The position numbers were made by a program, and so were the translations under genes. A stretch of DNA of 64,000 bases from positions 60,742 through 124,741 of the forward strand of contig CAZPBK010000001.1 of assembly GCA_964584985.1 (NCBI GenBank). Reading direction: 5' to 3'. Of this stretch, positions 15-61,570 are shown in pieces (the first letter of the stretch is position 1; each line of letters opens with the position of its first letter). The notes under the pieces were generated by a model that searched no databases, was not told the origin of the DNA, and saw only the letters and a program-made list of their open reading frames with translations. Source of the DNA: an uncultured Gammaproteobacteria bacterium (GTDB taxonomy: Bacteria > Patescibacteriota > Patescibacteriia > UBA11705 > JABHMO01).

Positions 15-422
15 ATGAATAGATCCGGAAAAACCACTAAGAATTTGCGGGAGCTTCCCATTAGTTACTCGGATCTGCTTAAAATTAGCGGTTTTTACTT
101 GGAATATCTTGCCCTGAAGAACCGTTTCTTGTATGTGTTTTACGCTACATATGAGGATTTGGCTCAAGTCACTTTGGCTGATCATATTTTGGTCGGTCTG
201 GATGTGGAACTTGATTCAGAACAAAAAATCTGGTGGCCGCCGGACAATCAGTACCATGTACTTTTGTACGAAAGGTTTGAACAGATCGGACGATACAATA
301 TCTTTGCTCTGATCAAAATGGGCGTGGAGCTTGAAGAAATTTCAAACTTGGAAGCGATCGCCAAAGCCACTGGCGATAAAAAGCTGTTTTATTTGCCCTC
401 AACCATCGGACTTTTGCAATAG
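15..422 (+). CDS. Hypothetical protein, possibly truncated at the 5' end by the window edge
   Basis: 135-aa ORF. The reading frame stays open back to position 3, so the true start may lie upstream of the window. No recognisable motif. A hairpin terminator follows it. Confidence 0.35.
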   Translation: MNRSGKTTKNLRELPISYSDLLKISGFYLEYLALKNRFLYVFYATYEDLAQVTLADHILVGLDVELDSEQKIWWPPDNQYHVLLYERFEQIGRYNIFALIKMGVELEEISNLEAIAKATGDKKLFYLPSTIGLLQ

Positions 423-13552: not shown

Positions 13553-14446
13553 TCATTTTATTTTAGATTGGCTTTTGGGTTTTATACGAAATATTTGCGC
13601 AAAAAGGGTCAATAAATAACTTATTGGTTGCATAATTAGCAAAAACCAATAAGTTGCCCGAGATTTGTTTTTTTTGAAATAGGTTAACATGCCTTTGTTA
13701 AAACGCTTTTGTTTTTTCAAGCTTTTCACTTGGGCAAAACTTTTTCCTTCATAATGAATCACTTGAGTAATGGGCAAATAAACAATTTCCGCACCCGTTT
13801 TCCTAACATCCAAACAAAGTTGAAGATCTTCCCACCATAAAGGATAATCTTCGTCCCAACCGTTTATCTCATTCATTAAAGTGGCTCTGGTAAAAATAAA
13901 AGCGCCCATAACCTGGTGAACATATTTTTTTTGATTGTAATCAAAGTTTTTTTGCAGATACCTTTCTAAGGGGGGTAAAAAACTGAAAATATGATGTAAT
14001 TTCAACAATATAAGCAACTGATCGCAAAATCCGGGGTCTTTTTTTACATTGGGTTGAGTGGTTTTGTCGCCAAAAAGCAAACGGCAAGTACAAATACCCA
14101 CATTTGGCGTTTTTTCCATAAATTCATACAATTTCAAAAAACTGTTTTCCATGATTTCCATATCCGGATTCATATATAGTTGGTATTTCCCAATGGACGC
14201 GCGAGCACCTTGATTATTGGCTTTGGCAAAACCGGCATTAAAATCGTTGGTTATAATTTTTAACTGCTTTTTTTCAATCCATTGGCCATAGTTTTTCTTT
14301 ATATTTTCCGCTGTCCCATCCTTGGAGTCATTATCCACAATTATTACCTCGTAATTAAGCCCTTCGGTATACTGAAAAATGGAATCCAAAAGCCGAGCAA
14401 GCAAATCTCGCACATTCCAGCTGACTATTATAATACTTAGATCCAT
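13553..14446 (-). CDS. Glycosyltransferase family 2
   Basis: N-terminal GT-A signature: LSIIIVSWN, VIIVDNDSKDGT (DxD-type) and a later acidic motif. Confidence 0.8.
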   Translation of the reverse strand: MDLSIIIVSWNVRDLLARLLDSIFQYTEGLNYEVIIVDNDSKDGTAENIKKNYGQWIEKKQLKIITNDFNAGFAKANNQGARASIGKYQLYMNPDMEIMENSFLKLYEFMEKTPNVGICTCRLLFGDKTTQPNVKKDPGFCDQLLILLKLHHIFSFLPPLERYLQKNFDYNQKKYVHQVMGAFIFTRATLMNEINGWDEDYPLWWEDLQLCLDVRKTGAEIVYLPITQVIHYEGKSFAQVKSLKKQKRFNKGMLTYFKKNKSRATYWFLLIMQPISYLLTLFAQIFRIKPKSQSKIK

Positions 14447-19322: not shown

Positions 19323-20135
19323 TTATCTGGTTGCTCCACTGTAGGCAATTGCTCTTACGGCATCCCAATCCGTTGCGCTACTTGGTGAATGCCCAAAGAT
19401 TCCTTCAAAATGGTCAATAGCTTCGGCTTCACTGCCCAAATTTCTTTCCCCCGGTCTTAAACCATAAGCCATAATGGTCACGGCCGCATTATCATTGGGA
19501 TTATCCATATTAGCCACTCTTAAATAAATTGTTTCAAACATGTCCTTGGCATTGTCCAAAGCGGTTTGACTGGACTCACTCGGCCATCGTCCATTGGCAA
19601 TTTTTAATACATCATTCCATTCAGCTGCAGTTTCAGGTAATTTCCCAAAAGCAGCCTGGTAGCTGTCCACTACGCCCGCTCTTTCACCGGCTCCCAAGTT
19701 CAAAGTAGTGGGAGTTCCATAGGTGATAAAATTAACAAGCGCGGTCATGACAGCTTCGCTTTCGTCACCGGAAATGATTTTACTGACAAGAGTTGATTCA
19801 TAGGAAGCCTCTTTAGCCAAATCTCTTTCAACGCCAACGGCCGAGGTAAGATCAACCACATTTCCGCCCGCAATATCTTCGGCTTCGTTAGTCATTTTTT
19901 CTAATTCAGTTGCGGCCTCTTCATCACCGCTAACCGGTTCTTCATCTCCATAAGTTGGAGTTGGTTCCGGTTCATCGACCGGCTCTTCAGGTGTGTCAAA
20001 TAAACTTTGTGGAGCGGAATAAGAAATTCCTCCACCGCCACCACCATAACCAAAGGCATCATTAAACACCATGGTCACTCCGGGTAGAAGAAGAAGAGCG
20101 GCAAGTACAAAGTAAATGAAAAATCTTGTTTTCAT
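19323..20135 (-). CDS. Secreted acidic Gly-rich protein with DUF4214-like C-terminal repeats
   Basis: Signal peptide MKTRFFIYFVLAALLLLPGV, a GGGGGG run and an acidic linker. Three repeats of the pattern xxFGxxPxxAxxWxxVxxIAxG. GC is elevated relative to neighbouring genes. Confidence 0.45.
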   Translation of the reverse strand: MKTRFFIYFVLAALLLLPGVTMVFNDAFGYGGGGGGISYSAPQSLFDTPEEPVDEPEPTPTYGDEEPVSGDEEAATELEKMTNEAEDIAGGNVVDLTSAVGVERDLAKEASYESTLVSKIISGDESEAVMTALVNFITYGTPTTLNLGAGERAGVVDSYQAAFGKLPETAAEWNDVLKIANGRWPSESSQTALDNAKDMFETIYLRVANMDNPNDNAAVTIMAYGLRPGERNLGSEAEAIDHFEGIFGHSPSSATDWDAVRAIAYSGATR

Positions 20136-38978: not shown

Positions 38979-39401
38979 ATGAAAAACATTTTGAACAACG
39001 GAAGGTTAAGGTGTTCGGGAAGATCATGGCAATTAGTTGAAAGCGACAAGTCCTGTATTCCTGGCGGTAAAAAAAACGGTGATCATTTGATTATTCTTTT
39101 TTCAGACAAAAATAGATATTGTAGTCGCGAAGAACTGGGAGAACTCTATGTAATAGCCGAACAACTGGCTACGGAATACGCACATCAGATCAATCTTTAC
39201 CGTATTGTTAAAAACGGCAAAGGCCTGCAATTTCGTAAAGGCTTTCATCTTCATCTCATCCTTCCGAAAAAAAGAAATTTCATTGCTCGTTGTGTTGAAC
39301 CAAGCGTTTCTATGATAAAACTGAGAAAATGGCAAGGTGAGAAGGTCTTTAAGTATGTTTTGAACAAATTACTGACCAGAGGACAACAGCAAAAAAGATA
39401 A
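38979..39401 (+). CDS. Divergent HIT-superfamily-like protein (tentative)
   Basis: A strong SD sits upstream (cacaggagg-N6-ATG). A HIT-like core reads GDHLIILFSDK...YRIVKNGKGLQFRKGFHLHLILP; this is an HxHxI motif rather than HxHxH. Elevated GC. Lone plus-strand gene inside the cysQ-cysNC array. Confidence 0.35.
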   Translation: MKNILNNGRLRCSGRSWQLVESDKSCIPGGKKNGDHLIILFSDKNRYCSREELGELYVIAEQLATEYAHQINLYRIVKNGKGLQFRKGFHLHLILPKKRNFIARCVEPSVSMIKLRKWQGEKVFKYVLNKLLTRGQQQKR

Positions 39402-43641: not shown

Positions 43642-44490
43642 ATGAAAACATGGGCGATCTTTAACAATGTCTTTTCAAATTATCCGGCACTTTACGCGGT
43701 GCTCAATCATGCAAAGAGTCTGGGTTCAGAAGCCTTTCTTTGTTTGGGAAATCTGGTTGGTTTCGGACCGCAACCCTTAGCCTGCCTAAAAACAGCTCAC
43801 GAAGAACATATTTTGCTAACTCAGGGACAGATGGAGTTCATGGTGGGCGCCGGCAAATTTACGCACTCTTTGGCCGATGATCAATTCACCGTTAAGGGTG
43901 CTCTGAGTAATATCAAGGAGTTGCAAGATTCCGGGCAAGAACAACGCTTAGCCTGTCACTTTCAAGAGGAAATGTACCAATTGGACAAAACAAAGATCAT
44001 AAAAATCAATGAAAAAAATGATCTGGTTATGGGGCACAGCTCCCTGAGCCCCAAACACAAGATTTGGCCGCCTCCCTGGCCGAAAATAAAAGGCAGAAAA
44101 AGCTTGGCCTCGGAGATCATCTTGGCTAAACGATCGTCAGAAAACGCCAGCTTGGTTCTTCTGGGCAACACCCGAGATGGTCTGTGGATGGATATGGAAA
44201 GAAGAAATATTCAAAACACAAGATTATTTAATGGTCGTGTCTTTATTCAAGAACCGACCTGCTTGTTGGTCAACCCGGGTTCAGTCGGCCAGTTGGACAG
44301 TGTAACCAATCTGGATGAAAACGGGTTTGGTCAAGCTTCCTATGTAACCTTGCATATTCCAGAAGAGGAAGACGAGGAAAAAAGTTGGGTCGAATTTCAT
44401 ACAGTTCGATACAACGCCATGGGATGCTTACAGACCATGAAGGAAAAAGGATTTGATCAAGACGAGATGAAATTCCTTTTCAATCTTTAA
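43642..44490 (+). CDS. Metallophosphoesterase (calcineurin-like, YfcE-like) homologue with degenerate metal-binding motifs
   Basis: Strong SD (taaggagg-N6-ATG). MPP-like blocks: CLGNLVGFGPQP (GN instead of GD) and VNPGSVGQ. The expected D-x-H and GNHE motifs are absent. Elevated GC. Confidence 0.5.
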   Translation: MKTWAIFNNVFSNYPALYAVLNHAKSLGSEAFLCLGNLVGFGPQPLACLKTAHEEHILLTQGQMEFMVGAGKFTHSLADDQFTVKGALSNIKELQDSGQEQRLACHFQEEMYQLDKTKIIKINEKNDLVMGHSSLSPKHKIWPPPWPKIKGRKSLASEIILAKRSSENASLVLLGNTRDGLWMDMERRNIQNTRLFNGRVFIQEPTCLLVNPGSVGQLDSVTNLDENGFGQASYVTLHIPEEEDEEKSWVEFHTVRYNAMGCLQTMKEKGFDQDEMKFLFNL

Positions 44491-44557: not shown

Positions 44558-45034
44558 TTACTTTTTTCTTTCATAAACTTCTTTGACTTCCGTGCCGGAC
44601 AAAGTCACCCACACAGTCAAAGTATTGTTACTGTTGCTCAACTCATAATTATATTCCGTAACATTCGGAACCGTATAACCGGGGCAATCACTGCTGTCAA
44701 CGGTCATAGTCATTGTTTTATTATCTTGATCAACATCAAGCTCTCCGGAAATTGTACATTCTGCTTTGGACACAAAAGTTTCCTCTCCCAAAAGCATGGA
44801 AGCCGGTTCTTGATGTTCCAAGTTATCATTCACATAAGTTGCCTGACGCTGCCAATTTCCCTTATAAGCAATATTTTCAGCTCCCTGTTCTTCACCTTCT
44901 TCCGTTTGACTAACCGCTTCACCGGGTTGCTGATTCTGTTTTTGACTTTGCTCCTCGGGAGTATACTTGGTACAGCCCGCAACCAAAGTTAAAGCCACTG
45001 CCAAAAAAAGCACTAAGATAAGATTTTTTCTCAT
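44558..45034 (-). CDS. Lipoprotein (signal peptide plus lipobox LVAGC)
   Basis: MRKNLILVLFLAVALTLVAGCTK. The mature part is acidic and Gln/Glu-rich. Confidence 0.5.
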   Translation of the reverse strand: MRKNLILVLFLAVALTLVAGCTKYTPEEQSQKQNQQPGEAVSQTEEGEEQGAENIAYKGNWQRQATYVNDNLEHQEPASMLLGEETFVSKAECTISGELDVDQDNKTMTMTVDSSDCPGYTVPNVTEYNYELSNSNNTLTVWVTLSGTEVKEVYERKK

Positions 45035-45771: not shown

Positions 45772-46406
45772 TTAATTTTTATCTTCTTGATTTACCAAGG
45801 GAACAAAAGCAAAACCGGGAAACTCTTTTTGTTCAAACTCCTTTTCCGCTCTTTTTTTAATTAGCCATAAACTGCTTTTTACCGGACAAACCAAACAGCC
45901 GCTGATTTTTAATTGTTCCAACCAAAATTCAGGTATTTGTTCTCCGGCGGCTGCGACAATAATTTTATCGTAGGGCGCGAATTCAGACAATCCTTTGCCG
46001 GCGTCAGTGCAAATAAATTTTACTCGCTGATATAGTTTTTTATATTTTTTTAAATTACTTTGACCGGATCTTTTTAATTGCTTAATCCTTTCCATCGCCA
46101 AAACTTGACCGTTTTTTCCCGCTAATTCGGCCAAAAGTCCGGTTTGCCAACCGCTACCGAACCTATCTCAAAAACTTTATCGCCATTTTTGACTTGTAAT
46201 TTTTCCAACATAAAAGCCACAGTGGCCGGCTGGGATATGGTTTGTCCCCGGCCAATGGGCAGCGGACGATTTTCATAAGCTTCACCTTTGTATTCCGGCG
46301 TAACAAAATCTTTTCTGTCCACTTTTTCAAAAACGTGAATAATCTCTTTGGACTGCAAATAGCCTGTATCAATTAATTGTTCAATCAATAAATGCATAAA
46401 AATCAT
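45772..46406 (-). pseudogene. pcm: Protein-L-isoaspartate O-methyltransferase (pcm) interrupted by a single-base (-1) frameshift
   Basis: ORF 46122..46406 encodes the Pcm N-terminus up to VFEIGS. ORF 45772..46134 encodes the remainder (AELAGKNGQVLAMERI...). Reading ggttcgg(g)tagcggttgg around 46147..46163 restores EIGSGSGWQTGLLAELAG. Confidence 0.7.
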
Positions 46407-53644: not shown

Positions 53645-54904
53645 TTATTCAAATTCAATCTTAATACGGTTAATCTTAAACTTTTGTTCATCCAAACGGG
53701 CAAAAGGCACCCAAAAACTAAAAATAAAACGATCAAAATCTCCATAAGAGTAATAGTTTTTCGGAGACAATAAAAATTCCAAACTCTTAGTTTGCCAATC
53801 ATCTGAATTTTCATTGTTAACTTGAGCGTTCTCTTTCTTGTCCTGAAAACTGAAATGATCAAACGGTTTAAAAGAAATAAAACCGTTGGTACGCATTTTT
53901 AAATCTCCAATTTTTGAATAAACCTTTACCGGCTTGGAATAATCACGCAAATCAGCGGTTTTATATTTTAAAATCTCGTTTAATTGAAATTCTTGACTAT
54001 TTAATAAAATGGTTTGCTTGCTTTCCCTGTGCGGAGTAAAAAAACTCAAATAATCGGCTTGAACCCAAAATTCGGAGTATTCTTTTTTCTTTAATTGCGG
54101 ATAATGGATCGAAAGATCTTCGGTCAAGAATATCTTGTCGGAAAACAAAACAACCGGGGAATTTATTTTTATACTGTTGGTCACAACATCTTCACCCGCT
54201 TTCCAACTTAATTTATACCAACCTTTTTGACCCAAAAATTCTTGAACACCAAAATTGCTCAAAAAATTTAATTGGCCGTTCCCCTCGGCAACACCATCGT
54301 CTTTAATTATTTCATGGTAAATCTGCGTCTCCCGATCAAAAATCTCTAACTCTACAGGATCGGCTCCGGCATGACGATTTATATCAAAATGCTCAATCTC
54401 TAAATCCAGTAAATCTTTATCAGCCCAAAAATAAAACTCAAAAGAACCGCGCAATCGAATGTTTATATCGGTTGATTTTTGTTGATCTTTTTTTACGCTC
54501 GGCAATCGCTTATTTAACATGCTCCGGGGATCTGACAAAACTCGCCAATCATATTCTCCGGTACTTGGGTTTTCCAATTTACCCAATTCAATCGGCTGAC
54601 CTGATTTATTTTTATATTCAATACTAACCCGACCTCGGGTGAAATTATTTTTAACTTTTACTTCAAAATGCACCGGATAACCGCGTACCGCCTGATAATT
54701 TCGCCCGGTTTCATCTTTTTGCGGCAAAACCAGACTTTCATTGGGATAAAGCCGGGAAATAAAACGATTGTCACGGACAAAATCATAACTATGCTCCCAC
54801 GGTGTTAAAACAGCCAGATTCTTATCAATAATAAACACACTCAACCCCAAAAAGCCTGAAAAAATCACAATAGTTGTTAACCATTTAAAAGTTTTAATCT
54901 TCAT
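53645..54904 (-). CDS. Membrane-anchored hypothetical protein
   Basis: N-terminal TM (LTTIVIFSGFLGLSVFII) and a ~390-aa extracytoplasmic domain. Overlaps the GT39 gene start, consistent with translational coupling. Confidence 0.45.
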   Translation of the reverse strand: MKIKTFKWLTTIVIFSGFLGLSVFIIDKNLAVLTPWEHSYDFVRDNRFISRLYPNESLVLPQKDETGRNYQAVRGYPVHFEVKVKNNFTRGRVSIEYKNKSGQPIELGKLENPSTGEYDWRVLSDPRSMLNKRLPSVKKDQQKSTDINIRLRGSFEFYFWADKDLLDLEIEHFDINRHAGADPVELEIFDRETQIYHEIIKDDGVAEGNGQLNFLSNFGVQEFLGQKGWYKLSWKAGEDVVTNSIKINSPVVLFSDKIFLTEDLSIHYPQLKKKEYSEFWVQADYLSFFTPHRESKQTILLNSQEFQLNEILKYKTADLRDYSKPVKVYSKIGDLKMRTNGFISFKPFDHFSFQDKKENAQVNNENSDDWQTKSLEFLLSPKNYYSYGDFDRFIFSFWVPFARLDEQKFKINRIKIEFE

Positions 54905-56594
54905 TATTTAATTCAATTAGTTTGTATAAATTTTCAGTTCCGCTAATATGACAAACATATTCCAAGCTAAGGTTTAGCTCAGTCAATTTGCCTTCGGAAA
55001 AAGCGATCACTTCATCAATCGGTCGCTCACTGTAATAATAACCTTGAAATTTGGTTTGCGGTATCTTTTGTAAGGCCTGAAAATGCTTGGTGCTATTCAG
55101 TTGTCTTATGATTTTATATTCATCGTCAAAAACCTTATCCGCCCAATTGGGAACAATTAAAATACTTGCATTCACCGGCGCTCTTTTTTTCACCAGCTCC
55201 AAACGCTCGGCATATCCGTCCAGAGTTTTTTCCACTTGCAACATACCCAGTTTTTTTTCAAAAAATGTTAAATACCCAGAAAAGGTTAAAAACAAAATTA
55301 AATACAAAGCAATAAACGATTTTTTATATTTCCCCAAACTCTTGGCCATAAAATTCAAGCCGATCACCGCAAAGGGCAAGCCGAAAATATAAATCGGTAA
55401 AAAATAACGCACATAAGAAATATCCAAGGTCGGTTTGGCCAAATCATAATTGCTATGATAAAGCCACAGCCACCAACTGCCGTAATAAACAAAAACCGCG
55501 ACCGAACTTAAACAATAGGTTAGCAAATAAAATTTTTCCGAGCGTTTTATTTTTTTTTTCATCAAATCAATAAACTTTTTGGCCAGACCTAAAAACAGAG
55601 GGATGGAAATCCACCAAAAAATCAGCAAAATAAATTTATAAAAATTCTCCATCAGTCTTTTTTCTTTAAAACCAAAAGGTGCGATAAAAGCCCGAGTTAA
55701 ATCCCAAACATTGTTATTTTTTTTAACCACCAAGGCTTGTTTGTTTTTATCATAATCGCGATCCGCTTGACTAATATCAATCAATTCAACTCGGTCGCCG
55801 TCGTCATTGTCCAATTTAGAGTAACCGGTGGTAAAAGATGAACCGTACAGAGTTTTATTCACCTCCAATACGGGCAAAGCCAAAACAATCATTAAAATCA
55901 AACCTACAGACAAATAAGACCATTTTATTTTTTTTCTTTGCCAAATAATCAAGCCCAGGACCATGACAGCGATCCACAAAAGCTCACTTGGACGCATCAA
56001 TACGGCCAAAGCCAAGCAAAAAGCCGACAAAACATAAAATAACAGTTTGCTTTTTTCATTTTCAAAAATTTTCACCCAAAAATATACAGCCAAAATCACC
56101 AAACTCAAAACCGGGATATTATTCATCATTCCCCTGTTGGAATAATAAAGAAAGACCGGATGCAAAGCCATTAAAAACCCGGAAAACAAGGCGATTTTTG
56201 GGCTGAAAAATCTTTTAATCAATCCGTAAAACGCCATCACGGCCAAAACTGCCAAAAGCGGAGTAAGATATTCAATTAAACTCAAGCCGATAATTTTTCC
56301 GATTAAACCGTAGACCATGATCATTCCGACAAAGCCCTGAGGTACCAACCGCCCATGAGAATTAACATTAAAACTGCGGCCCTGAATCTGCTTTTCCAAC
56401 TCCAAATTCAAAGGTTCGTCAATGGCGATTTGTCCCGTTTGGACATAATTTTTTATAAAAATAAAATTCGCGGTTTCATCCGGTGAATTGTAAATCTGAT
56501 CCGAGGTTAAAGCCAAAAAACTATATAAAATAAAGCAAAGCACCAAAAAAGCGCCCGCCAAAACAGGGAAATATTTTTTCAGATTTTTACTCAT
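54894..56594 (-). CDS. GT-C glycosyltransferase family 39 (PMT/ArnT-like)
   Basis: Polytopic, 566 aa. The conserved first-loop DE motif is present (NSPDETANFIF). Soluble C-terminal domain. Confidence 0.65.
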   Translation of the reverse strand: MSKNLKKYFPVLAGAFLVLCFILYSFLALTSDQIYNSPDETANFIFIKNYVQTGQIAIDEPLNLELEKQIQGRSFNVNSHGRLVPQGFVGMIMVYGLIGKIIGLSLIEYLTPLLAVLAVMAFYGLIKRFFSPKIALFSGFLMALHPVFLYYSNRGMMNNIPVLSLVILAVYFWVKIFENEKSKLLFYVLSAFCLALAVLMRPSELLWIAVMVLGLIIWQRKKIKWSYLSVGLILMIVLALPVLEVNKTLYGSSFTTGYSKLDNDDGDRVELIDISQADRDYDKNKQALVVKKNNNVWDLTRAFIAPFGFKEKRLMENFYKFILLIFWWISIPLFLGLAKKFIDLMKKKIKRSEKFYLLTYCLSSVAVFVYYGSWWLWLYHSNYDLAKPTLDISYVRYFLPIYIFGLPFAVIGLNFMAKSLGKYKKSFIALYLILFLTFSGYLTFFEKKLGMLQVEKTLDGYAERLELVKKRAPVNASILIVPNWADKVFDDEYKIIRQLNSTKHFQALQKIPQTKFQGYYYSERPIDEVIAFSEGKLTELNLSLEYVCHISGTENLYKLIELNNED

Positions 56595-56628
56595 AGCCTA
56601 ATTATTATACACTATTTGCCTGTTTTTA

Positions 56629-56656
56629 CAAAAAAATTCGGCCGCTCGGCGACCGA
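56629..56656 (-). terminator. Rho-independent terminator (minus strand) downstream of the GC-rich element
   Basis: Minus-strand read tcggtcgc-cga-gcggccga (an 8-bp stem with one G-U pair) followed by attttttt. Confidence 0.55.
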
Positions 56657-56681
56657 ATGTATGTTTTGAATTCCTTGTTGA

Positions 56682-56966
56682 TCAAAGCTTAATCAGAATC
56701 CTGCCCGGCTCATCATTTCCGTTACTCCAACGACCATTTTTAAAGCGAAACCCCAACTGTCGCATACGCTTGGACGGAACCGCTCTTTGCCCCCTTGGAG
56801 TGGTGTAAGTGCCCACGCGCCGGGTTCTCCCCAAAAAAAGAATCAATTCTTCTTGCTCCGAAATTTCACTCGGCTCTACTCGGCTACCGGATTTTGATTC
56901 CACCACTACGGCCGGATCCTGGCGACGAGCCACGGCAAGAACAGGAGTTGTCTCCATACCTTTCAT
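56682..56966 (-). CDS. GC-rich (~55-60%) 94-aa Arg-rich ORF with canonical SD; could alternatively be a structured RNA
   Basis: aaggagga-N3-ATG. The product is MKGMETTPVLAVARRQDPAVVVESKSGSRVEP...GRTRRVGTYTTPRGQRAVPSKRMRQLGFRFKNGRW.... GC content is about double the genome background, and its own terminator lies downstream. A tandem agccgagt motif occurs within. Confidence 0.35.
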   Translation of the reverse strand: MKGMETTPVLAVARRQDPAVVVESKSGSRVEPSEISEQEELILFLGRTRRVGTYTTPRGQRAVPSKRMRQLGFRFKNGRWSNGNDEPGRILIKL

Positions 56967-57203
56967 TTGTCCTCCTTGGTTTTAGTTAAAAAGTATAATT
57001 ATTATAGCGAATTAGCCAATTTCAGTCAAGCAAGAACAAAAGACTCCTTATTTTTATTAAACAGATTAATTCAACATAAATCAACTGACAAATCTATACT
57101 TAGCCCTAATTACCTTTACCTGTTTTTTGTTATTTTGACCTCTATCGCCTCATTTATGTGCTATTCACCAACGCTCCAAAACAAGAACACTAAATTTGTT
57201 CAA

Positions 57204-57240
57204 GACTAAAAAAAGCGTTAGCAATGAAGCAAACGCTTTT
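57204..57240. terminator. Bidirectional terminator hairpin (aaaagcgtt...aacgctttt)
   Basis: A 9-bp perfect stem with a 12-nt loop and T-runs on both strands. Downstream of the 57258..57554 CDS. Confidence 0.45.
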
Positions 57241-57257
57241 AATTTTTTTATTTCTTC

Positions 57258-57554
57258 TTACCCTTGCCGCCGGTCATTCTTTCGCTTCCCCCATTTCAGG
57301 AACAAGGCAATGCCCAGCAACAAAAACACAAACATCACCAAATAGACTGCCAACAGATGCTTAGCCGTCAACACAAAACCCAAAAAAAGGCTAAGCCCTA
57401 TCGCGACCAAACAGCCGATAATCACAAAAGCTACGGCAAAAGGCCAAAAAGAAAACAAAGCAATTCCAAACCCGATAATAGTCGCCAGTACGAGTCCGTT
57501 ATGAACGGCTTTACTCGTATTTCGCCCTTGTTTGTTTCCGTCCAAATCTTTCAT
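57258..57554 (-). CDS. Small integral membrane protein (3 TM)
   Basis: 98 aa: a polar N-terminus followed by three hydrophobic helices and a basic C-terminal tail. Confidence 0.45.
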   Translation of the reverse strand: MKDLDGNKQGRNTSKAVHNGLVLATIIGFGIALFSFWPFAVAFVIIGCLVAIGLSLFLGFVLTAKHLLAVYLVMFVFLLLGIALFLKWGKRKNDRRQG

Positions 57555-57624
57555 ATTGACCTCCTTTTAGCAATGAACAAATTGACCTTGAATTATAGCA
57601 GATTAAGAAAATATTGTCAATATC

Positions 57625-57652
57625 AAAAAATCGGCTAATGGCCGATTTTTTT
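57625..57652. terminator. Bidirectional terminator (atcggc-taatg-gccgat flanked by A6 and T6)
   Basis: Lies immediately downstream of the rpmG stop on the minus strand. Confidence 0.5.
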
Positions 57653-57661
57653 GCAATAACT

Positions 57662-57817
57662 TTATTTTGTTTCTTTATGCGGAGTATGCTTTTTACATTT
57701 TTTACAGTACTTTTTCAACTCTAGCTTTTCTTTAATGGATTTTTTGTTTCTGCGAGAAAAATAGTTTATATTTCCGCATTCTTTGCATTGCAACTTAATT
57801 AAATGTGTTTGTGACAT
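57662..57817 (-). CDS. rpmG: 50S ribosomal protein L33
   Basis: [51 protein letters not shown] is collinear with Bacillus-type L33 (C-x2-C...[15 protein letters not shown]). The true start is the internal ATG at 57817. The longer ORF-track frame (to 57940) would run through the tRNA-Thr gene. Confidence 0.85.
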
Positions 57818-57869
57818 ATAATAAAATTTATTGTTTAAAATCAATCTCAGCCGAATTTTCAGAAAAACA

Positions 57870-57945
57870 CAGCTGAGAATGGAGCCAACGGAGGGATTCG
57901 AACCCACGACCGATGGTTTACAAAACCACTGCTCTACCAACTGAG
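57870..57945 (-). tRNA. trnT: tRNA-Thr (anticodon UGU), CCA end encoded
   Basis: Manual fold: acceptor GCCAACG/CGTTGGC, D-arm GCTC-AGTTGGTA-GAGC, anticodon stem GTGGT/ACCAT, loop TTTGTAA (anticodon TGT). T-loop TTCGAAT with one U-U mismatch in the T-stem. Discriminator U plus CCA. Confidence 0.8.
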
Positions 57946-57997
57946 CTACGTTGGCAAAAAGGTGTTGGCATTATAGCATAATCAGTAAATAATGCAA

Positions 57998-58025
57998 GAG
58001 TTTGAATAAAAAAAAGACAAAGCCG
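57998..58025 (-). terminator. Rho-independent terminator downstream of the PRTase-domain gene
   Basis: Minus-strand read gacaaagc-aacg-gctttgtc followed by T8. Confidence 0.6.
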
Positions 58026-58059
58026 TTGCTTTGTCTCATTTTATTACTTTTTGTCCCTC

Positions 58060-59154
58060 CTACCGGCCGGATCCTCCTTTTTCCAGACGGTTAATACTTT
58101 CTTCAATTGCTTTGACCACCGACCAATCCCGTTTTTTGCGGTAATGAAAAGGAATTCTGGGCAAATGCCCCACCTTCAAAATTCGCTTCTCACAGGTGAT
58201 GGCTTTGGTCTCTTTTTCAATAGCCAAACACAATTCAATGCTGAGATTCAGACAAAAAACCGAAAATTCTTTAACCTTGGAAATGGGAATTCCGGCCCAA
58301 GCCACCGGATTTCCCAATGGCATGATATAAGGCGCACAATAATTCCCCTCCATGGGTACGCCGAAATACCACTTGCCGATTTCTTCGTGGGAATGGTCAA
58401 ACAATTGCTCCCCCACAATTCGTCCGGAATAATCAACTCCCACAAAAAAATCTCGCTCGGCCACCCAATCGTGCACTCTTTGTCGGGAAAATCTTTCAAC
58501 CCATTCAAAGGGCACATCCAAGGTTTGACAATCCTTTGTCTCATCCCTTATCTCAATACCAATAATAAACTTTTCCACTTCAATCCCGGCACTACCCAGC
58601 AAACTCTTCACGGCCAGTAAAGACTTTCTGGTCCAAGTCCCATCATCAACCACAATCACACGTTTTTTGCGCATAGCCTTGATCCGCCCCTGATTAACAA
58701 TCCTGTCCAACTGTCTTTTGATACTAAGCTCGGTTTCCCTGGGACCGCGACCTATCTCAGACCAAGCAAAAAAAGGATTATTCTGTTCCATAATCTCGGA
58801 GAAATGCACTATGCGCCCCGTGTCAAAAAAGATATCAGCCGTACCTTGCTCCACATAGACCTTGTCCAAGGAAATTACCGGTACATCTTGGGACGCCTTG
58901 CTCAGATGTCGCAAAATTCCCGTTTTAACATATTCCCAAGGAAAGTAACTAAGAGCAATTCCATGCGGAGACAAAATCCTTTCCAATTTTTTTCGCAACT
59001 TTCCGGTTAAACGATCAAAAATCTTTTTGTCCGGTAAGTAAAAAAAACCCTTGCCGTTATTGATAGTCCTGCTGACTAAAACACGCAAATCCCCCGTTAA
59101 AATATAATCCTTAACCAAAGGTTCAGAATATAACAAATGATCACTCCTCGGCAT
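58060..59154 (-). CDS. Phosphoribosyltransferase-domain protein of unknown function, elevated GC, canonical SD
   Basis: Internal type-I PRTase-like PRPP-binding motif KKRVIVVDDGTWTRKS. ~150 aa N-terminal and ~170 aa C-terminal extensions have no recognised motifs. GC is ~43% against a ~30% background. ggagggagg sits 4 nt upstream of the ATG at 59154 (the ORF track starts 3 nt earlier at a TTG). Confidence 0.45.
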   Translation of the reverse strand: MPRSDHLLYSEPLVKDYILTGDLRVLVSRTINNGKGFFYLPDKKIFDRLTGKLRKKLERILSPHGIALSYFPWEYVKTGILRHLSKASQDVPVISLDKVYVEQGTADIFFDTGRIVHFSEIMEQNNPFFAWSEIGRGPRETELSIKRQLDRIVNQGRIKAMRKKRVIVVDDGTWTRKSLLAVKSLLGSAGIEVEKFIIGIEIRDETKDCQTLDVPFEWVERFSRQRVHDWVAERDFFVGVDYSGRIVGEQLFDHSHEEIGKWYFGVPMEGNYCAPYIMPLGNPVAWAGIPISKVKEFSVFCLNLSIELCLAIEKETKAITCEKRILKVGHLPRIPFHYRKKRDWSVVKAIEESINRLEKGGSGR

Positions 59155-59223
59155 CAAACCTCCCTCCGGGTCAAAAAGAATTAAATGAACAAATATTAAA
59201 AATTCCTTAAATATATCTTATCT

Positions 59224-60060
59224 CTATCTTGCTAAATCGTCAATTTTTAACAATATTTCTTCAACTCCCTTGGCAATCGGCTCCTTGGCTACATAATCAG
59301 CGTTTTTCTTAGCATCTTCACCGGCATTGCCGACAACAAAAAAGTAATTCATTTTACTTTTCAACGGTTTATCCAAAATGTCATCACCAATTACAATATT
59401 TTTATAATTCGGATACTTTTCCTTTAGAACCTGAAAAGCTTTTGCCTTGCTGGTTTCCTTGGGATAAGCCAATAAATTGGCAAATGAAGTTGTATATTCC
59501 AAATCAAAAGGATAGTTCTTTTTTTCAACCAATTCTTTCACTTTTTGATAAAATTCCTTGACCGCCGGAAGATGTTTTGCTAATTGACCGTTTTCAACTT
59601 TTTTGACATGAATACTCAAACTGTATTTTCTATATTGATTAACGAAAAAAATCACAGTATCCTCACCAGGTATTTCTTGAACATCCAAATGCTTGTTAAT
59701 GTCCGTGGTGTCACAATTAAAGATCCTGGAATCTTTAAACTCTTTTTTTACCAAGAAATCAATATCCCGCTTTAACTCTTTTAAGCTTTCAACCGTTTTA
59801 TCACTGACCAATATTTGCTCGGTTTCATTTTCCTGATCATAAATAAAACTACCGTTTTCGCCGATTAAAGGCCCATGTATGTCAAACATTTGAACCACTT
59901 CAAACAAATCCTCCAAAGATCTGTTGGAGTTAATAATAAATATCTCGCCTTCTTCTGAAAGTTGCTTTATTACAGAATTAATTGTCGGAGAATTGGAACG
60001 ATAATCAGTATCCAACAAAGTGCCGTCCACATCCAAGGTAATTAAATATTTATTTTTCAT
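59224..60060 (-). CDS. HAD-superfamily hydrolase, Cof-like (HAD-IIB) sugar-phosphate phosphatase
   Basis: Motif I ITLDVDGTLLD, motif II-like ..INSNRS, and C-terminal GDDILD/..VVGNA motifs. 278 aa. Confidence 0.65.
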   Translation of the reverse strand: MKNKYLITLDVDGTLLDTDYRSNSPTINSVIKQLSEEGEIFIINSNRSLEDLFEVVQMFDIHGPLIGENGSFIYDQENETEQILVSDKTVESLKELKRDIDFLVKKEFKDSRIFNCDTTDINKHLDVQEIPGEDTVIFFVNQYRKYSLSIHVKKVENGQLAKHLPAVKEFYQKVKELVEKKNYPFDLEYTTSFANLLAYPKETSKAKAFQVLKEKYPNYKNIVIGDDILDKPLKSKMNYFFVVGNAGEDAKKNADYVAKEPIAKGVEEILLKIDDLAR

Positions 60061-60123
60061 AAAAATTATTTTTCATTATATATTAAAAAAAAGATTCGGG
60101 TTTGTCAAATACCTGCCGTTTTT

Positions 60124-60168: not shown

Positions 60169-61473
60169 TTACTTGTTTATTTTTTCCAATATTTGGTTTA
60201 AAGTTAGCAAATCCTGCTCTCCTGTTTTCATATTTTTCAAACTGTACTTTTTTTGCTTATCCTCATCCTCTCCGATCAGAACAACATAGGGGATGTTGTA
60301 AGCATTGGCAAAATCCAAGGCTTGTTTTATCTTTTTTTCGGATAAGTTAATATCAGTGTTTAGACCGGCCTTTCTCAACTCCGAGGCAGCTTCCAAAGCT
60401 CTAAAATAATACTTTTTTTCAAAAGGCACAAAATAAACTTGAGCCACAGCTTTTTCATCTTGAACAATCCTTTTGTTCAATTTCATAGCCTCAAAAACAG
60501 TTTCCAAACCAAACCCCACTCCAATCGCAGGATACTCTTTCTTGGAATTAAGAAATCCGGAAATCATTTTGTCATAGCGACCGCCTCCGGCCAGAGAAGA
60601 ATCCAACTCAGACTGATCCTTTAAAAAGACTTCAAAAATATTTCCTGTGTAATAGTCCAAGCCTCTGGCCAATGATGGAATAAATTCTATTGATTCATTA
60701 TTTAAAACTCCCTTGATGGTTCGCTCCAATTCGTCCAAGCCGGAATCATCTCCCAATATCTCACGCAAATTACTAATTTTTTCCCTATTGGAACCTTGAA
60801 TGTTTATTGTTTTAATAATCGTTTCCACTTGATCTTCCTTTAGTCCCTTAGCTTTTAATTCTTCAATCACTTTGCTTTGTCCCATTTTTTCCAATTTATC
60901 CAAAGTTATTATAGTTGTGGCAAACAAATCCTCAGTTAAACCTGCATATTTTAATATGGAGTTTATAACTTTCCGGTTGTTTAAGCTGATTGTAATTTCC
61001 AAATCCAATTTTTCAAAAACTTCGTAAATAAGCTGTAAAATTTCAGCGTCGGCGTTTGTGCTTTTTACTCCCACCATATCAATATCAGCCTGCCAAAACT
61101 CCCTGTAACGACCCAGCTTTACCGGTCCATCGCGAAAAACCTGCCCGATTTGATAACGTTTGAACGGCATTTTCATATTGGGGTTCATTCCAACATATCG
61201 GGCAAAAGGTACGGTAAATTCAGTTCGTAAAACCAAGTCTCTGCCACCTTGGTCTTGAAGCTTGAAAGATTCTTTCATGGCATCGGATTCCTGTCCCGGA
61301 CCAAATTTTGAAGCAAAAAGATCATATCTCTCAATGATCGGGGTTTCAATCGGGTTGTAACCAAAAGACTCAAAAACTTGGCGCAAAGTTTTTACTATTT
61401 TATCTCTGGCTTTTTTTTCTTTCGGAGCAAAATCTCTGACTCCTTTGGCCCTTTTTAATATTTCCGATTTCAT
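60169..61473 (-). CDS. hisS: Histidine--tRNA ligase
   Basis: Class II motif 2 region YQIGQVFRDGPVKLGRYREFWQADID (the HisRS pattern FR.E.PQ.GR.R.F.Q). 434 aa with a C-terminal anticodon-binding domain. Confidence 0.85.
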   Translation of the reverse strand: MKSEILKRAKGVRDFAPKEKKARDKIVKTLRQVFESFGYNPIETPIIERYDLFASKFGPGQESDAMKESFKLQDQGGRDLVLRTEFTVPFARYVGMNPNMKMPFKRYQIGQVFRDGPVKLGRYREFWQADIDMVGVKSTNADAEILQLIYEVFEKLDLEITISLNNRKVINSILKYAGLTEDLFATTIITLDKLEKMGQSKVIEELKAKGLKEDQVETIIKTINIQGSNREKISNLREILGDDSGLDELERTIKGVLNNESIEFIPSLARGLDYYTGNIFEVFLKDQSELDSSLAGGGRYDKMISGFLNSKKEYPAIGVGFGLETVFEAMKLNKRIVQDEKAVAQVYFVPFEKKYYFRALEAASELRKAGLNTDINLSEKKIKQALDFANAYNIPYVVLIGEDEDKQKKYSLKNMKTGEQDLLTLNQILEKINK

Positions 61474-61493: not shown

Positions 61494-61570
61494 TGGGGTG
61501 GACGACGGGACTTGAACCCGCGGCCTCTAGTACCACAAACTAGAGCTCTACCAACTGAGCTACGTCCACC
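61494..61570 (-). tRNA. trnH: tRNA-His (anticodon GUG) with genomically encoded G-1 and CCA
   Basis: Manual fold: extra 5' G, then acceptor GTGGACG/CGTCCAC, discriminator C (pairs with G-1), CCA. Anticodon stem CTAGT/ACTAG with loop TTGTGGT (anticodon GTG). It lies 20 nt upstream of hisS on the same strand. Confidence 0.85.

Follow-up and report, generated by a model that had tools for sequence, protein, structure and literature searches.

The minus strand of the 64,000-nucleotide (nt) stretch of DNA analysed here (hereafter the window) carries every gene between 53 and 64 kb. Within this region the segment 56629-59160 encodes a phosphoribosyltransferase-like (PRTase-like) protein of 364 amino acids (aa) and, further downstream, a small basic protein of 94 aa, both of which stand out by their G+C (GC) content and their Shine-Dalgarno (SD) sites. 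An earlier note on this DNA had taken these properties, together with the strong terminators of the genes, as signs of horizontal acquisition; it had offered a structured non-coding RNA (ncRNA) as an alternative to the small open reading frame (ORF), and a retron-associated effector as one possible role of the PRTase-like protein. The observations presented below indicate that the genes of this segment are very likely native, conserved protein-coding genes rather than transferred DNA, an RNA or a retron, and on balance the minus-strand segment reads as native Patescibacteria chromosome divided into four tightly packed transcription units. The features of the region are listed below in transcription order; three of them (tRNA-Thr, the rpmG gene for L33 and a 98-aa gene) lie inside the segment and were not named in the earlier note.

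61494-61569, minus strand: tRNA-His, first in transcription order.
60169-61473, minus strand: histidyl-tRNA synthetase (HisRS) gene, from Pfam and NCBIfam scans.
60151-60133, minus strand: HisRS terminator, followed by the promoter of the HAD gene.
60080-60108, minus strand: sigma-70-like promoter of the HAD gene, TTGACA-17-TAATAT (10/12), from a consensus scan only.
59224-60060, minus strand: HAD-IIB (Cof-type) phosphatase, 278 aa (Pfam Hydrolase_3, 6e-23; TIGR01484 HAD-IIB above cutoff).
59159-59167, minus strand: SD site GGAGGGAGG of the PRTase-like gene, from the SD census.
58060-59154, minus strand: PRTase-like protein, 364 aa, with a type I PRTase core, the phosphoribosyl pyrophosphate (PRPP) loop VIVVDDGTWTRKS and a conserved extension.
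58014-58037, minus strand: intrinsic terminator of the HAD/PRTase-like unit (fold z-score -4.4).
57880-57955, minus strand: tRNA-Thr (UGU), from Rfam and ARAGORN.
57662-57817, minus strand: rpmG, ribosomal protein L33, 51 aa (Pfam Ribosomal_L33, 3.5e-18).
57592-57620, minus strand: sigma-70 promoter of the 98-aa gene, perfect extended consensus TTGACA-17-TG-TATAAT (12/12), from a consensus scan.
57258-57554, minus strand: 98-aa predicted membrane protein, with SD site AAGGAGG at 57566-57560, GC 0.45 and GC at third codon positions (GC3) 0.53.
57208-57240, minus strand: terminator-like hairpin and U-tract 3' of the 98-aa gene (fold z-score -2.0).
57001-57029, minus strand: sigma-70-like promoter of the 94-aa gene, TTGACT-17-TATAAT (11/12), from a consensus scan, with the transcription start placed at about 56994.
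56971-56977, minus strand: SD site AAGGAGG of the 94-aa gene, common to all four orthologues.
56682-56966, minus strand: 94-aa small protein gene of a clade-restricted family, from its orthologues and codon-position analysis.
56636-56658, minus strand: intrinsic terminator of the 94-aa gene, a 10-bp stem with 6 GC pairs followed by U7 (fold z-score -3.3).
54894-56594, minus strand: PMT_2-type glycosyltransferase gene, last in transcription order.

The first of the four units would comprise the HAD-IIB phosphatase followed by the PRTase-like enzyme, the second tRNA-Thr and rpmG, the third the lineage-specific 98-aa membrane protein, and the fourth the 94-aa small basic protein. Since no terminator is predicted inside the 69-nt spacer that separates the HAD and PRTase-like genes, these two are likely to form a two-gene operon. 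For the latter gene, the ATG at 59154, which lies 8 nt past the first GGAGG and yields 364 aa, is preferred as the start over the TTG at 59157. The strong terminators pointed out earlier for the 94-aa and PRTase-like genes are indeed present, in the form of a hairpin and U-tract 3' of each gene, and another such element follows the 98-aa gene.

Scans for related loci recovered one locus from a genome collection and four from metagenomes, and the gene neighborhood of the PRTase-like family was compared across a sample of 11 loci, whose family members are 25-53% identical to the window protein. The order HisRS, HAD and PRTase-like gene, and further on tRNA-Thr, L33, the small protein and the PMT_2 glycosyltransferase, is common to the window and to three of the related loci (L004, L007 and L012), in all of which the position of rpmG is kept. 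The proteins of these four syntenic lineages are 26-53% identical. An identical PRTase-like protein is annotated in a Patescibacteria metagenome-assembled genome, and the relatives at 49-53% identity include Candidatus Falkowbacteria. The 98-aa protein has no homologue in any related locus and no match in PADLOC, PHROGs, NCBIfam or Pfam, and its gene is the sole element of the segment that could be a recent gain.

The related loci also show some variation of their own. Where the window has the 98-aa membrane protein, L007 and L012 carry an unrelated Cys-rich (zinc-ribbon-like) small ORF that adjoins the small-protein gene, after it in L007 (15219-15488) and before it in L012 (13156-13476). Just upstream of tRNA-Thr and rpmG in L007 there is an 85-aa GIY-YIG nuclease ORF (14175-14432) with a GC of 0.26, which resembles a small mobile insertion. 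The sole GTDB-representative genome with a close relative (L010; CAZPYM010000001.1, 563,767 bp) is labelled 'uncultured Gammaproteobacteria bacterium', a label that is probably wrong, given that its gene order and proteins match those of the Patescibacteria loci.

The compositional peculiarity of the segment is real. Against a window background of 0.344, the 94-aa ORF has a GC of 0.516, the top value in the window; a 285-nt peak of 0.526 at 56695-56979 (z=3.5) is matched by no other 285-nt window, the GC of the PRTase-like gene (0.437, z=2.9) is reached by no other 1098-nt window, and the segment 56629-59160 as a whole, at 0.410, is the maximum for its length. The GC3 values of the 94-aa ORF and the PRTase-like gene are 0.48 and 0.46, versus 0.32 +/- 0.06. 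The rise in GC reported earlier thus stands for both genes, with the qualification that the figure of 55-60% given for the small-ORF tract was slightly too high. In all 11 loci the GC and GC3 of the PRTase-like gene exceed the mean of the other ORFs of the locus (sign test, about 5e-4), with a GC offset of 0.02-0.09 over locus means that range from 0.345 to 0.648, and its absolute GC tracks that of the host from 0.44 to 0.68. Because it is seen in every one of these loci, the offset is best understood as a property of the gene family and not as a trace of transfer. The small gene has a GC of 0.52, 0.56, 0.44 and 0.52 in the four lineages, versus 0.345, 0.408, 0.356 and 0.473 for the respective loci, with values of 0.57 and 0.49 at first and second codon positions. 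Its third codon positions are saturated between the lineages, which implies that a donor composition could not have survived and that the offset must be maintained in place. The raised GC derives partly from the high proportion of Arg, Gly, Ala, Pro and Trp residues, and partly from a lasting bias towards G/C-ending codons.

A similar situation is encountered with the ribosome-binding sites. A GGAGG-type core at positions -20 to -3 precedes 7 of the 64 window genes (shuffled upstream regions give 0.9 +/- 0.9), and three of these seven belong to the segment, namely the 94-aa (56977-56971), 98-aa (57566-57560) and PRTase-like (59167-59159) genes. The contention that native genes of the window lack such sites is therefore true of 57 of the 64 genes, but four SD-bearing genes lie outside the segment. 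The SD-bearing genes are GC-richer than those without SD sites (Mann-Whitney p=0.01), and SD-like motifs are found upstream of most PRTase-like homologues too. It is conceivable that GC-richer genes would need an explicit SD site where most genes start behind A/U-rich, SD-less leaders. In all likelihood, the raised GC and the SD sites belong to these gene families themselves and have been kept in every lineage, and are not traces of transfer. More generally, when a genome is AT-rich and SD-poor, a local GC excess, SD sites and private terminators may be lasting attributes of the genes concerned instead of marks of transfer, and it is the comparison of orthologues that tells gene-intrinsic composition from transfer.

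The PRPP-loop motif VIVVDDGTWT recognized earlier is present at residues 167-176 of the 364-aa protein, and the description of a PRTase core with large unassigned parts is likewise borne out. An exhaustive profile search recovered 483 representatives of this family at 50% clustering, 313 of them at E<=1e-10; most members span 290-330 aa, and those looked up are labelled 'hypothetical protein' at most. Pfam scans of 74 diverse members returned matches confined to the PRPP loop, to PF00156 in 32, to UPRTase in 11 and to PRTase-CE in 7 of them, with a best E-value of 2.7e-07, and ten members scanned in detail all fell below curated cutoffs. Clear homology to a housekeeping PRTase, which the earlier note had considered as an outcome that would undermine its reading, was not found, and no curated PRTase family fits. 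An AlphaFold model derived from the 74-sequence alignment reached a predicted local distance difference test score (pLDDT) of 93.8 (a first model from six sequences, at pLDDT 55, was discarded) and contains the Rossmann-like PRTase core fold. Its best structural matches are APRT, XPRT, OPRT and HGPRT, with AgmE (PDB 7f06) as the second-best fold match, and about 125-150 of the 364 residues superpose on known PRTases, at 9-18% identity.

Across the 74 members, R115, R140 and the two acidic residues of the PRPP loop (D171-D172) are near-invariant, as is a block outside the core formed by D230, R235-D236-F237, G240, P242, G245, Y277, G282 and W287-A288. The motifs of the extension (DWVxERDF, GxSGR and APY..P.G.P..WA) are without a structural match. 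Conservation in core and extension alike is in keeping with an active enzyme whose acceptor-binding hood is novel. The PRPP loop of the window protein, VIVV-DD-GTW-T-R-K-S, keeps the acidic pair and both hydroxyl residues and has Arg in place of the Gly of the S/T-G element, a position occupied by Arg or another residue across its subclade. In comparison to the type I PRTases (APRT, XPRT, HGPRT, OPRT and UPRT; PF00156), the window protein is twice as large, and differs in this Gly-to-Arg replacement, in its low identity and score below the PF00156 cutoff, and in a conserved extension with motifs of its own. From its conserved residues and modelled fold, the 364-aa protein is predicted to be a PRPP-dependent type I phosphoribosyltransferase, very probably an active one, that belongs to an uncharacterised family.

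The contextual associations of this family in the 11 loci offer clues regarding its potential function. The genes found in its neighborhood are the following:

HisRS gene: 10 of 11 loci.
HAD-IIB-like phosphatase, beside or near the PRTase-like gene: 9 of 11 loci.
LDcluster4 (LOG-like phosphoribohydrolase): 6 of 11 loci.
Histidine ammonia-lyase (HAL): 6 of 11 loci (of these copies, that of L004 was scanned and reached 669 bits with TIGR01225, whose cutoff is 539).
PNP_UDP_1 nucleoside phosphorylase (PNP): 4 of 11 loci.
Adjacent hisG-hisE: 2 of 11 loci.
Histidine decarboxylase: 1 of 11 loci.
CntK-like histidine racemase domain: 1 of 11 loci.

L004, L007, L012 and L015 each have an orthologue of the window HAD protein (48-51% identity) beside or close to their PRTase-like gene, and in L020 and L021 distant homologues are found. 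The HisRS genes fall into two types that are about 30% identical; both keep the anticodon-binding domain, and the scanned representative of each passes the hisS equivalog cutoff. Type 1 (433-435 aa) is found in the window, L007 and L015, while type 2 (447-472 aa) occurs one to three genes from the PRTase-like gene in eight of the 11 loci (L004 6875-8275, L012 5522-6916, L015 7267-8631, L017 6969-8357, L018 8504-9847, L019 7035-8417, L020 7315-8733 and L021 3420-4787). Three loci carry two HisRS genes. The window has a minimal version of the cluster, composed of HisRS, HAD and the PRTase-like gene.

Beside the cluster, L004 (837-5437) and L015 (1765-4398) contain a histidine-centred island that has no counterpart in the window. 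Its members include histidine ammonia-lyase, a pyruvoyl histidine decarboxylase, an MR_MLE-type racemase, M20 peptidases and GNAT acetyltransferases, and also an acetyltransferase fusion whose N-terminal domain is CntK-like (histidine racemase).

These linkages point to a mechanism in which the PRTase-like enzyme would join an acceptor with PRPP to form a ribotide, from which the presumably co-transcribed HAD phosphatase would then remove the 5'-phosphate to release a riboside. The conserved non-core parts, chiefly the C-terminal extension, would form the acceptor-binding hood, and in the fuller clusters the LOG-like phosphoribohydrolase and the nucleoside phosphorylase would supply or recycle the base. 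We regard this sequence of phosphoribosylation and dephosphorylation as a serious candidate while stopping short of calling it probable. As the family is constantly linked to HisRS and histidine ammonia-lyase, its acceptor or its regulation might be related to histidine or imidazole. An imidazole-type acceptor, or control by histidine status, would be the most interesting case, though gene linkage makes a histidine- or imidazole-type acceptor in particular only a tentative and rather doubtful choice. Just as speculative is the more extended proposal that the PRTase-like family and its HAD-IIB partner, joined where the cluster is fuller by the LOG-like, PNP and HAL enzymes and a dedicated HisRS paralogue, might constitute an undescribed histidine-linked pathway, widespread from minimal Patescibacteria to GC-rich bacteria, that attaches a phosphoribosyl group to an acceptor of the imidazole type (histidine, urocanate, histamine or AICA) before releasing the riboside, and that the 94-aa protein might separately represent a new clade-specific nucleic-acid- or ribosome-associated factor. 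In the literature searched, only metabolomics papers mention N-ribosylhistidine, and they list it as a metabolite to which no enzyme has been assigned; no literature on PRTase-CE or LDcluster4 was found.

The combination of activities envisaged here has a parallel in angustmycin biosynthesis, where a LOG-type phosphoribohydrolase, a PRTase and a HAD phosphatase (AgmA, AgmE and AgmB) have been shown experimentally to build a nucleoside (PMC8599513). As in that system, a PRTase gene and a HAD gene adjoin each other in the window, a HAD-IIB-like gene accompanies the PRTase-like gene, directly or close by, in nine of the 11 loci, and the structure of AgmE, an adenine phosphoallulosyltransferase (7f06), resembles the model of the window protein. 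In contrast, the PRTase-like clusters lack pyrophosphokinase, epimerase and dehydratase genes, the LOG-like gene is absent from the window (its LDcluster4 equivalent being present in six of the related loci), the hosts are small-genome Patescibacteria and others instead of Streptomyces, and the cluster is tied to HisRS and histidine ammonia-lyase.

Several points weigh against the interpretation developed so far. Searches of the 64-kb window with tblastn detected no LOG-like, PNP, HAL or second HisRS gene, so that for the window cluster the logic of the pathway is borrowed from its relatives. The window protein scores 14.6 bits on PF00156 (cutoff 26.3) and 16 bits on the APRT-like models of NCBIfam (cutoff 143), and it has T-R-K-S in its PRPP loop versus S-G-x-S/T in most of the family. 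The Gly replaced in this loop usually helps bind the 5'-phosphate. The 11 loci behind the compositional sign test and the neighborhood counts were chosen for their long contigs and are neither a random nor a phylogenetically independent sample, and the GC3 excess may stem from selection or from some local mutational bias. Finally, the small-protein family has been found in four lineages only.

The best of the competing explanations, itself unlikely, is that the PRTase-like protein is a divergent housekeeping enzyme of purine/pyrimidine salvage in a bacterium without de novo nucleotide synthesis, with the phosphatase and HisRS being unrelated to it. Patescibacteria depend on salvage, the PNP and LOG-like neighbors in the relatives are salvage-type enzymes too, and the closest structures are APRT, XPRT, OPRT and HGPRT, but the superposition with these extends over less than half of the protein at the low identities given above, no curated salvage family is matched, and the conserved extension with its near-invariant motifs has no counterpart in them. 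Moreover, the pairing with a phosphatase in nine of the 11 loci would undo the salvage reaction, and the linkage to HisRS and histidine ammonia-lyase would be left unexplained.

Alternatively, and with appreciably lower probability, the PRTase-fold protein might be a regulator that senses PRPP or nucleotides, like PyrR or PurR, both of which are among its fold and profile matches, or a partner of HisRS in the manner of HisZ and HisG. HisRS paralogues regulate ATP-PRTase in the HisZ-HisG system, with which the present cluster shares the genomic tie between a predicted PRPP-dependent transferase and HisRS-family genes (HisRS in ten of the 11 loci, and its distinct paralogue type within one to three genes in eight), as well as hisG-hisE genes that adjoin the cluster in two loci. 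However, HisG belongs to another fold class (type IV), the scanned representatives of both HisRS types exceed the hisS cutoff and, unlike HisZ, the two types keep their anticodon-binding domain. No DNA- or RNA-binding domain was detected in the PRTase-like protein, whose catalytic acidic pair, like several of its Arg residues, hardly varies across the family. An alternative ATP-PRTase/histidinol-phosphatase pair was also considered and set aside, as hisG itself is found next door in two loci and the rest of the his pathway is absent from the window; a role in queuine salvage tied to tRNA-His was likewise rejected, there being no tgt linkage. A PRTase acting in concert with the HAD phosphatase is retained as the preferred functional proposal.

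With respect to the origin of the segment, a horizontally acquired island, whose GC, SD sites and private terminators came from a foreign donor, is very unlikely. The excess in GC and GC3, the clustering of three of the seven SD-bearing genes, the presence of a tRNA gene and the 98-aa gene as a possible recent gain would all be compatible with such an origin, but the synteny kept in four lineages, the same offset in all 11 loci tracking the GC of each host, and the saturation of synonymous sites between lineages, under which no donor signature would last, speak against it. The housekeeping tRNA-Thr and L33 genes sit in the middle of the segment, which contains no integrase and no repeat-bounded structure, and tblastn against 50,697 phage and 72,556 plasmid records found no relative. 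The usual signs of a genomic island (absence from relatives, mobility genes and unshared composition) were accordingly not found, and the earlier claim of horizontal acquisition is not supported, being largely refuted for the 94-aa and PRTase-like genes; native, gene-intrinsic features account better for these observations.

Still less probable is a role of the PRTase-like protein in anti-phage defence, whether as a retron-associated effector, the possibility raised earlier, or as one of the ShosT type. Retron type III-A3 and ShosT effectors share with it a divergent PRTase fold with extra domains, and its only PADLOC match is to the ShosT hidden Markov model (E=0.003, 15.6 bits); in addition, sub-threshold PRTase-CE matches are seen in 7 of the 74 family members, and an uncharacterised protein of an Acinetobacter phage is remotely similar in fold (E=3e-4). 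The matches span the generic PRPP loop only, however, and within 5 kb there is no reverse transcriptase, msr/msd RNA, ShosA/DprA-like or antitoxin partner, or other defence gene, the neighbors over this distance being HisRS, HAD, tRNA-Thr, L33, small proteins and the PMT_2 glycosyltransferase. In all 11 loci the neighborhood is stable and of a housekeeping or metabolic character, unlike that of defence islands.

The best viral fold match is a 212-aa protein of Acinetobacter phage vB_AbaM_ME3 (A0A172Q0R7; E=3.4e-4, TM-score 0.69 on the target), which covers more of the PRTase-like model than the cellular PRTases do.

As judged from sequence comparisons, the 94-aa ORF is a real protein gene, one of the two alternatives that had been put forward for the GC-rich tract. 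An orthologous ORF of 87-93 aa lies between rpmG and the PMT_2 gene in L004, L007 and L012; these orthologues were located by position in the contigs of the relatives, which had been fetched by means of the PRTase-like protein. They are 26-41% identical and share a basic C-terminal block with the pattern G-x-x-x-RV-x-T ... AV ... R ... RW-x-NG ... G-x-x-x-I. In the codon-threaded alignment of the four lineages, 0.62-0.81 of third, 0.45-0.60 of first and 0.33-0.47 of second codon positions differ, with this same ranking for each pair of lineages. Each of the 14 invariant residues that have synonymous codons is specified by at least two different codons among the four sequences, switches between CGN and AGR for Arg included, and the start codon and an AAGGAGG-type SD site are conserved in all four. 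A profile of the four sequences finds only these orthologues (hmmsearch E-values of 4e-39 to 5e-44), word-indexed protein searches with the 94-aa query and with a three-sequence profile returned only sequences already in hand, the alignment profile found no match among solved structures, and no family was detected in Pfam, NCBIfam, PADLOC, PHROGs or PDB.

On the side of RNA, Rfam at gathering score recovered only the three tRNAs in the whole window, and up to E<=10 the region 56400-57700 produced only chance-level matches, the best of which (E=0.14) is a terminator-like sRNA model outside the ORF; ARAGORN found no tmRNA. Folding of the transcript has a z-score of -1.3 and that of the coding sequence one of +0.2, and the RNAalifold consensus of the four orthologues amounts to -2.6 kcal/mol. 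That the tract 56640-56980 is a structured ncRNA with an incidental ORF is extremely improbable and, as far as these tools reach, refuted, for although it is the highest-GC stretch of the window, would be transcribed by itself as a short monocistronic RNA between a promoter and a terminator of its own, and gave no protein homologue in word-indexed searches, no Rfam family explains it, no fold is conserved, and its substitutions are codon-periodic with the frame, start codon and SD site kept.

The product of the 94-aa gene would therefore be a conserved small protein, with its basic C-terminal half as the functional part. The N-terminal half is acidic, the C-terminal half has 13 basic and 2 acidic residues, and the net charge is about +8, which makes it plausible that the protein is a candidate nucleic-acid-binding factor. 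In its size of about 90 aa, its charge, its strong promoter, SD site and terminator, and the location of its orthologues immediately downstream of rpmG in the relatives, it is reminiscent of small basic bacterial proteins encoded beside ribosomal-protein genes. Unlike these, it has no match to ribosomal, nucleoid or RNA-binding families in Pfam, NCBIfam and PDB, and is confined to the four lineages. It adds one more small conserved protein to the large unknown fraction of Patescibacteria proteomes.

The PRTase-fold family, for its part, comprises about 480 sequence clusters without a model in any curated database, and the fact that, even where genomes are minimal, it stays closely tied to HisRS, a HAD phosphatase and enzymes acting on histidine or nucleosides suggests the retention of a useful metabolic step. 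As stated, the finding is of moderate to low interest, which would be higher if the proposed pathway were demonstrated.

Elsewhere in the window, the other GC-richest ORFs lie at 15-422 (plus strand), 19323-20135 (minus), 43642-44490 (plus) and 44558-45034 (minus), with GC of 0.41-0.45 and GC3 of up to 0.49. An SD site is found before the third of these and before the ORF 38979-39401 (plus; GC 0.37), and none of these five ORFs has a Pfam family. Apparently the genome contains a minority of genes that are GC-richer, often preceded by an SD site and impossible to annotate. A further ORF of 94 aa, at 46122-46406 on the minus strand, matches only positions 6-82 of the 210 in the PCMT (protein-L-isoaspartate O-methyltransferase) model and overlaps by 13 nt a 120-aa ORF at 45772-46134 on the same strand; the pair may represent a frameshifted or split pcm gene.

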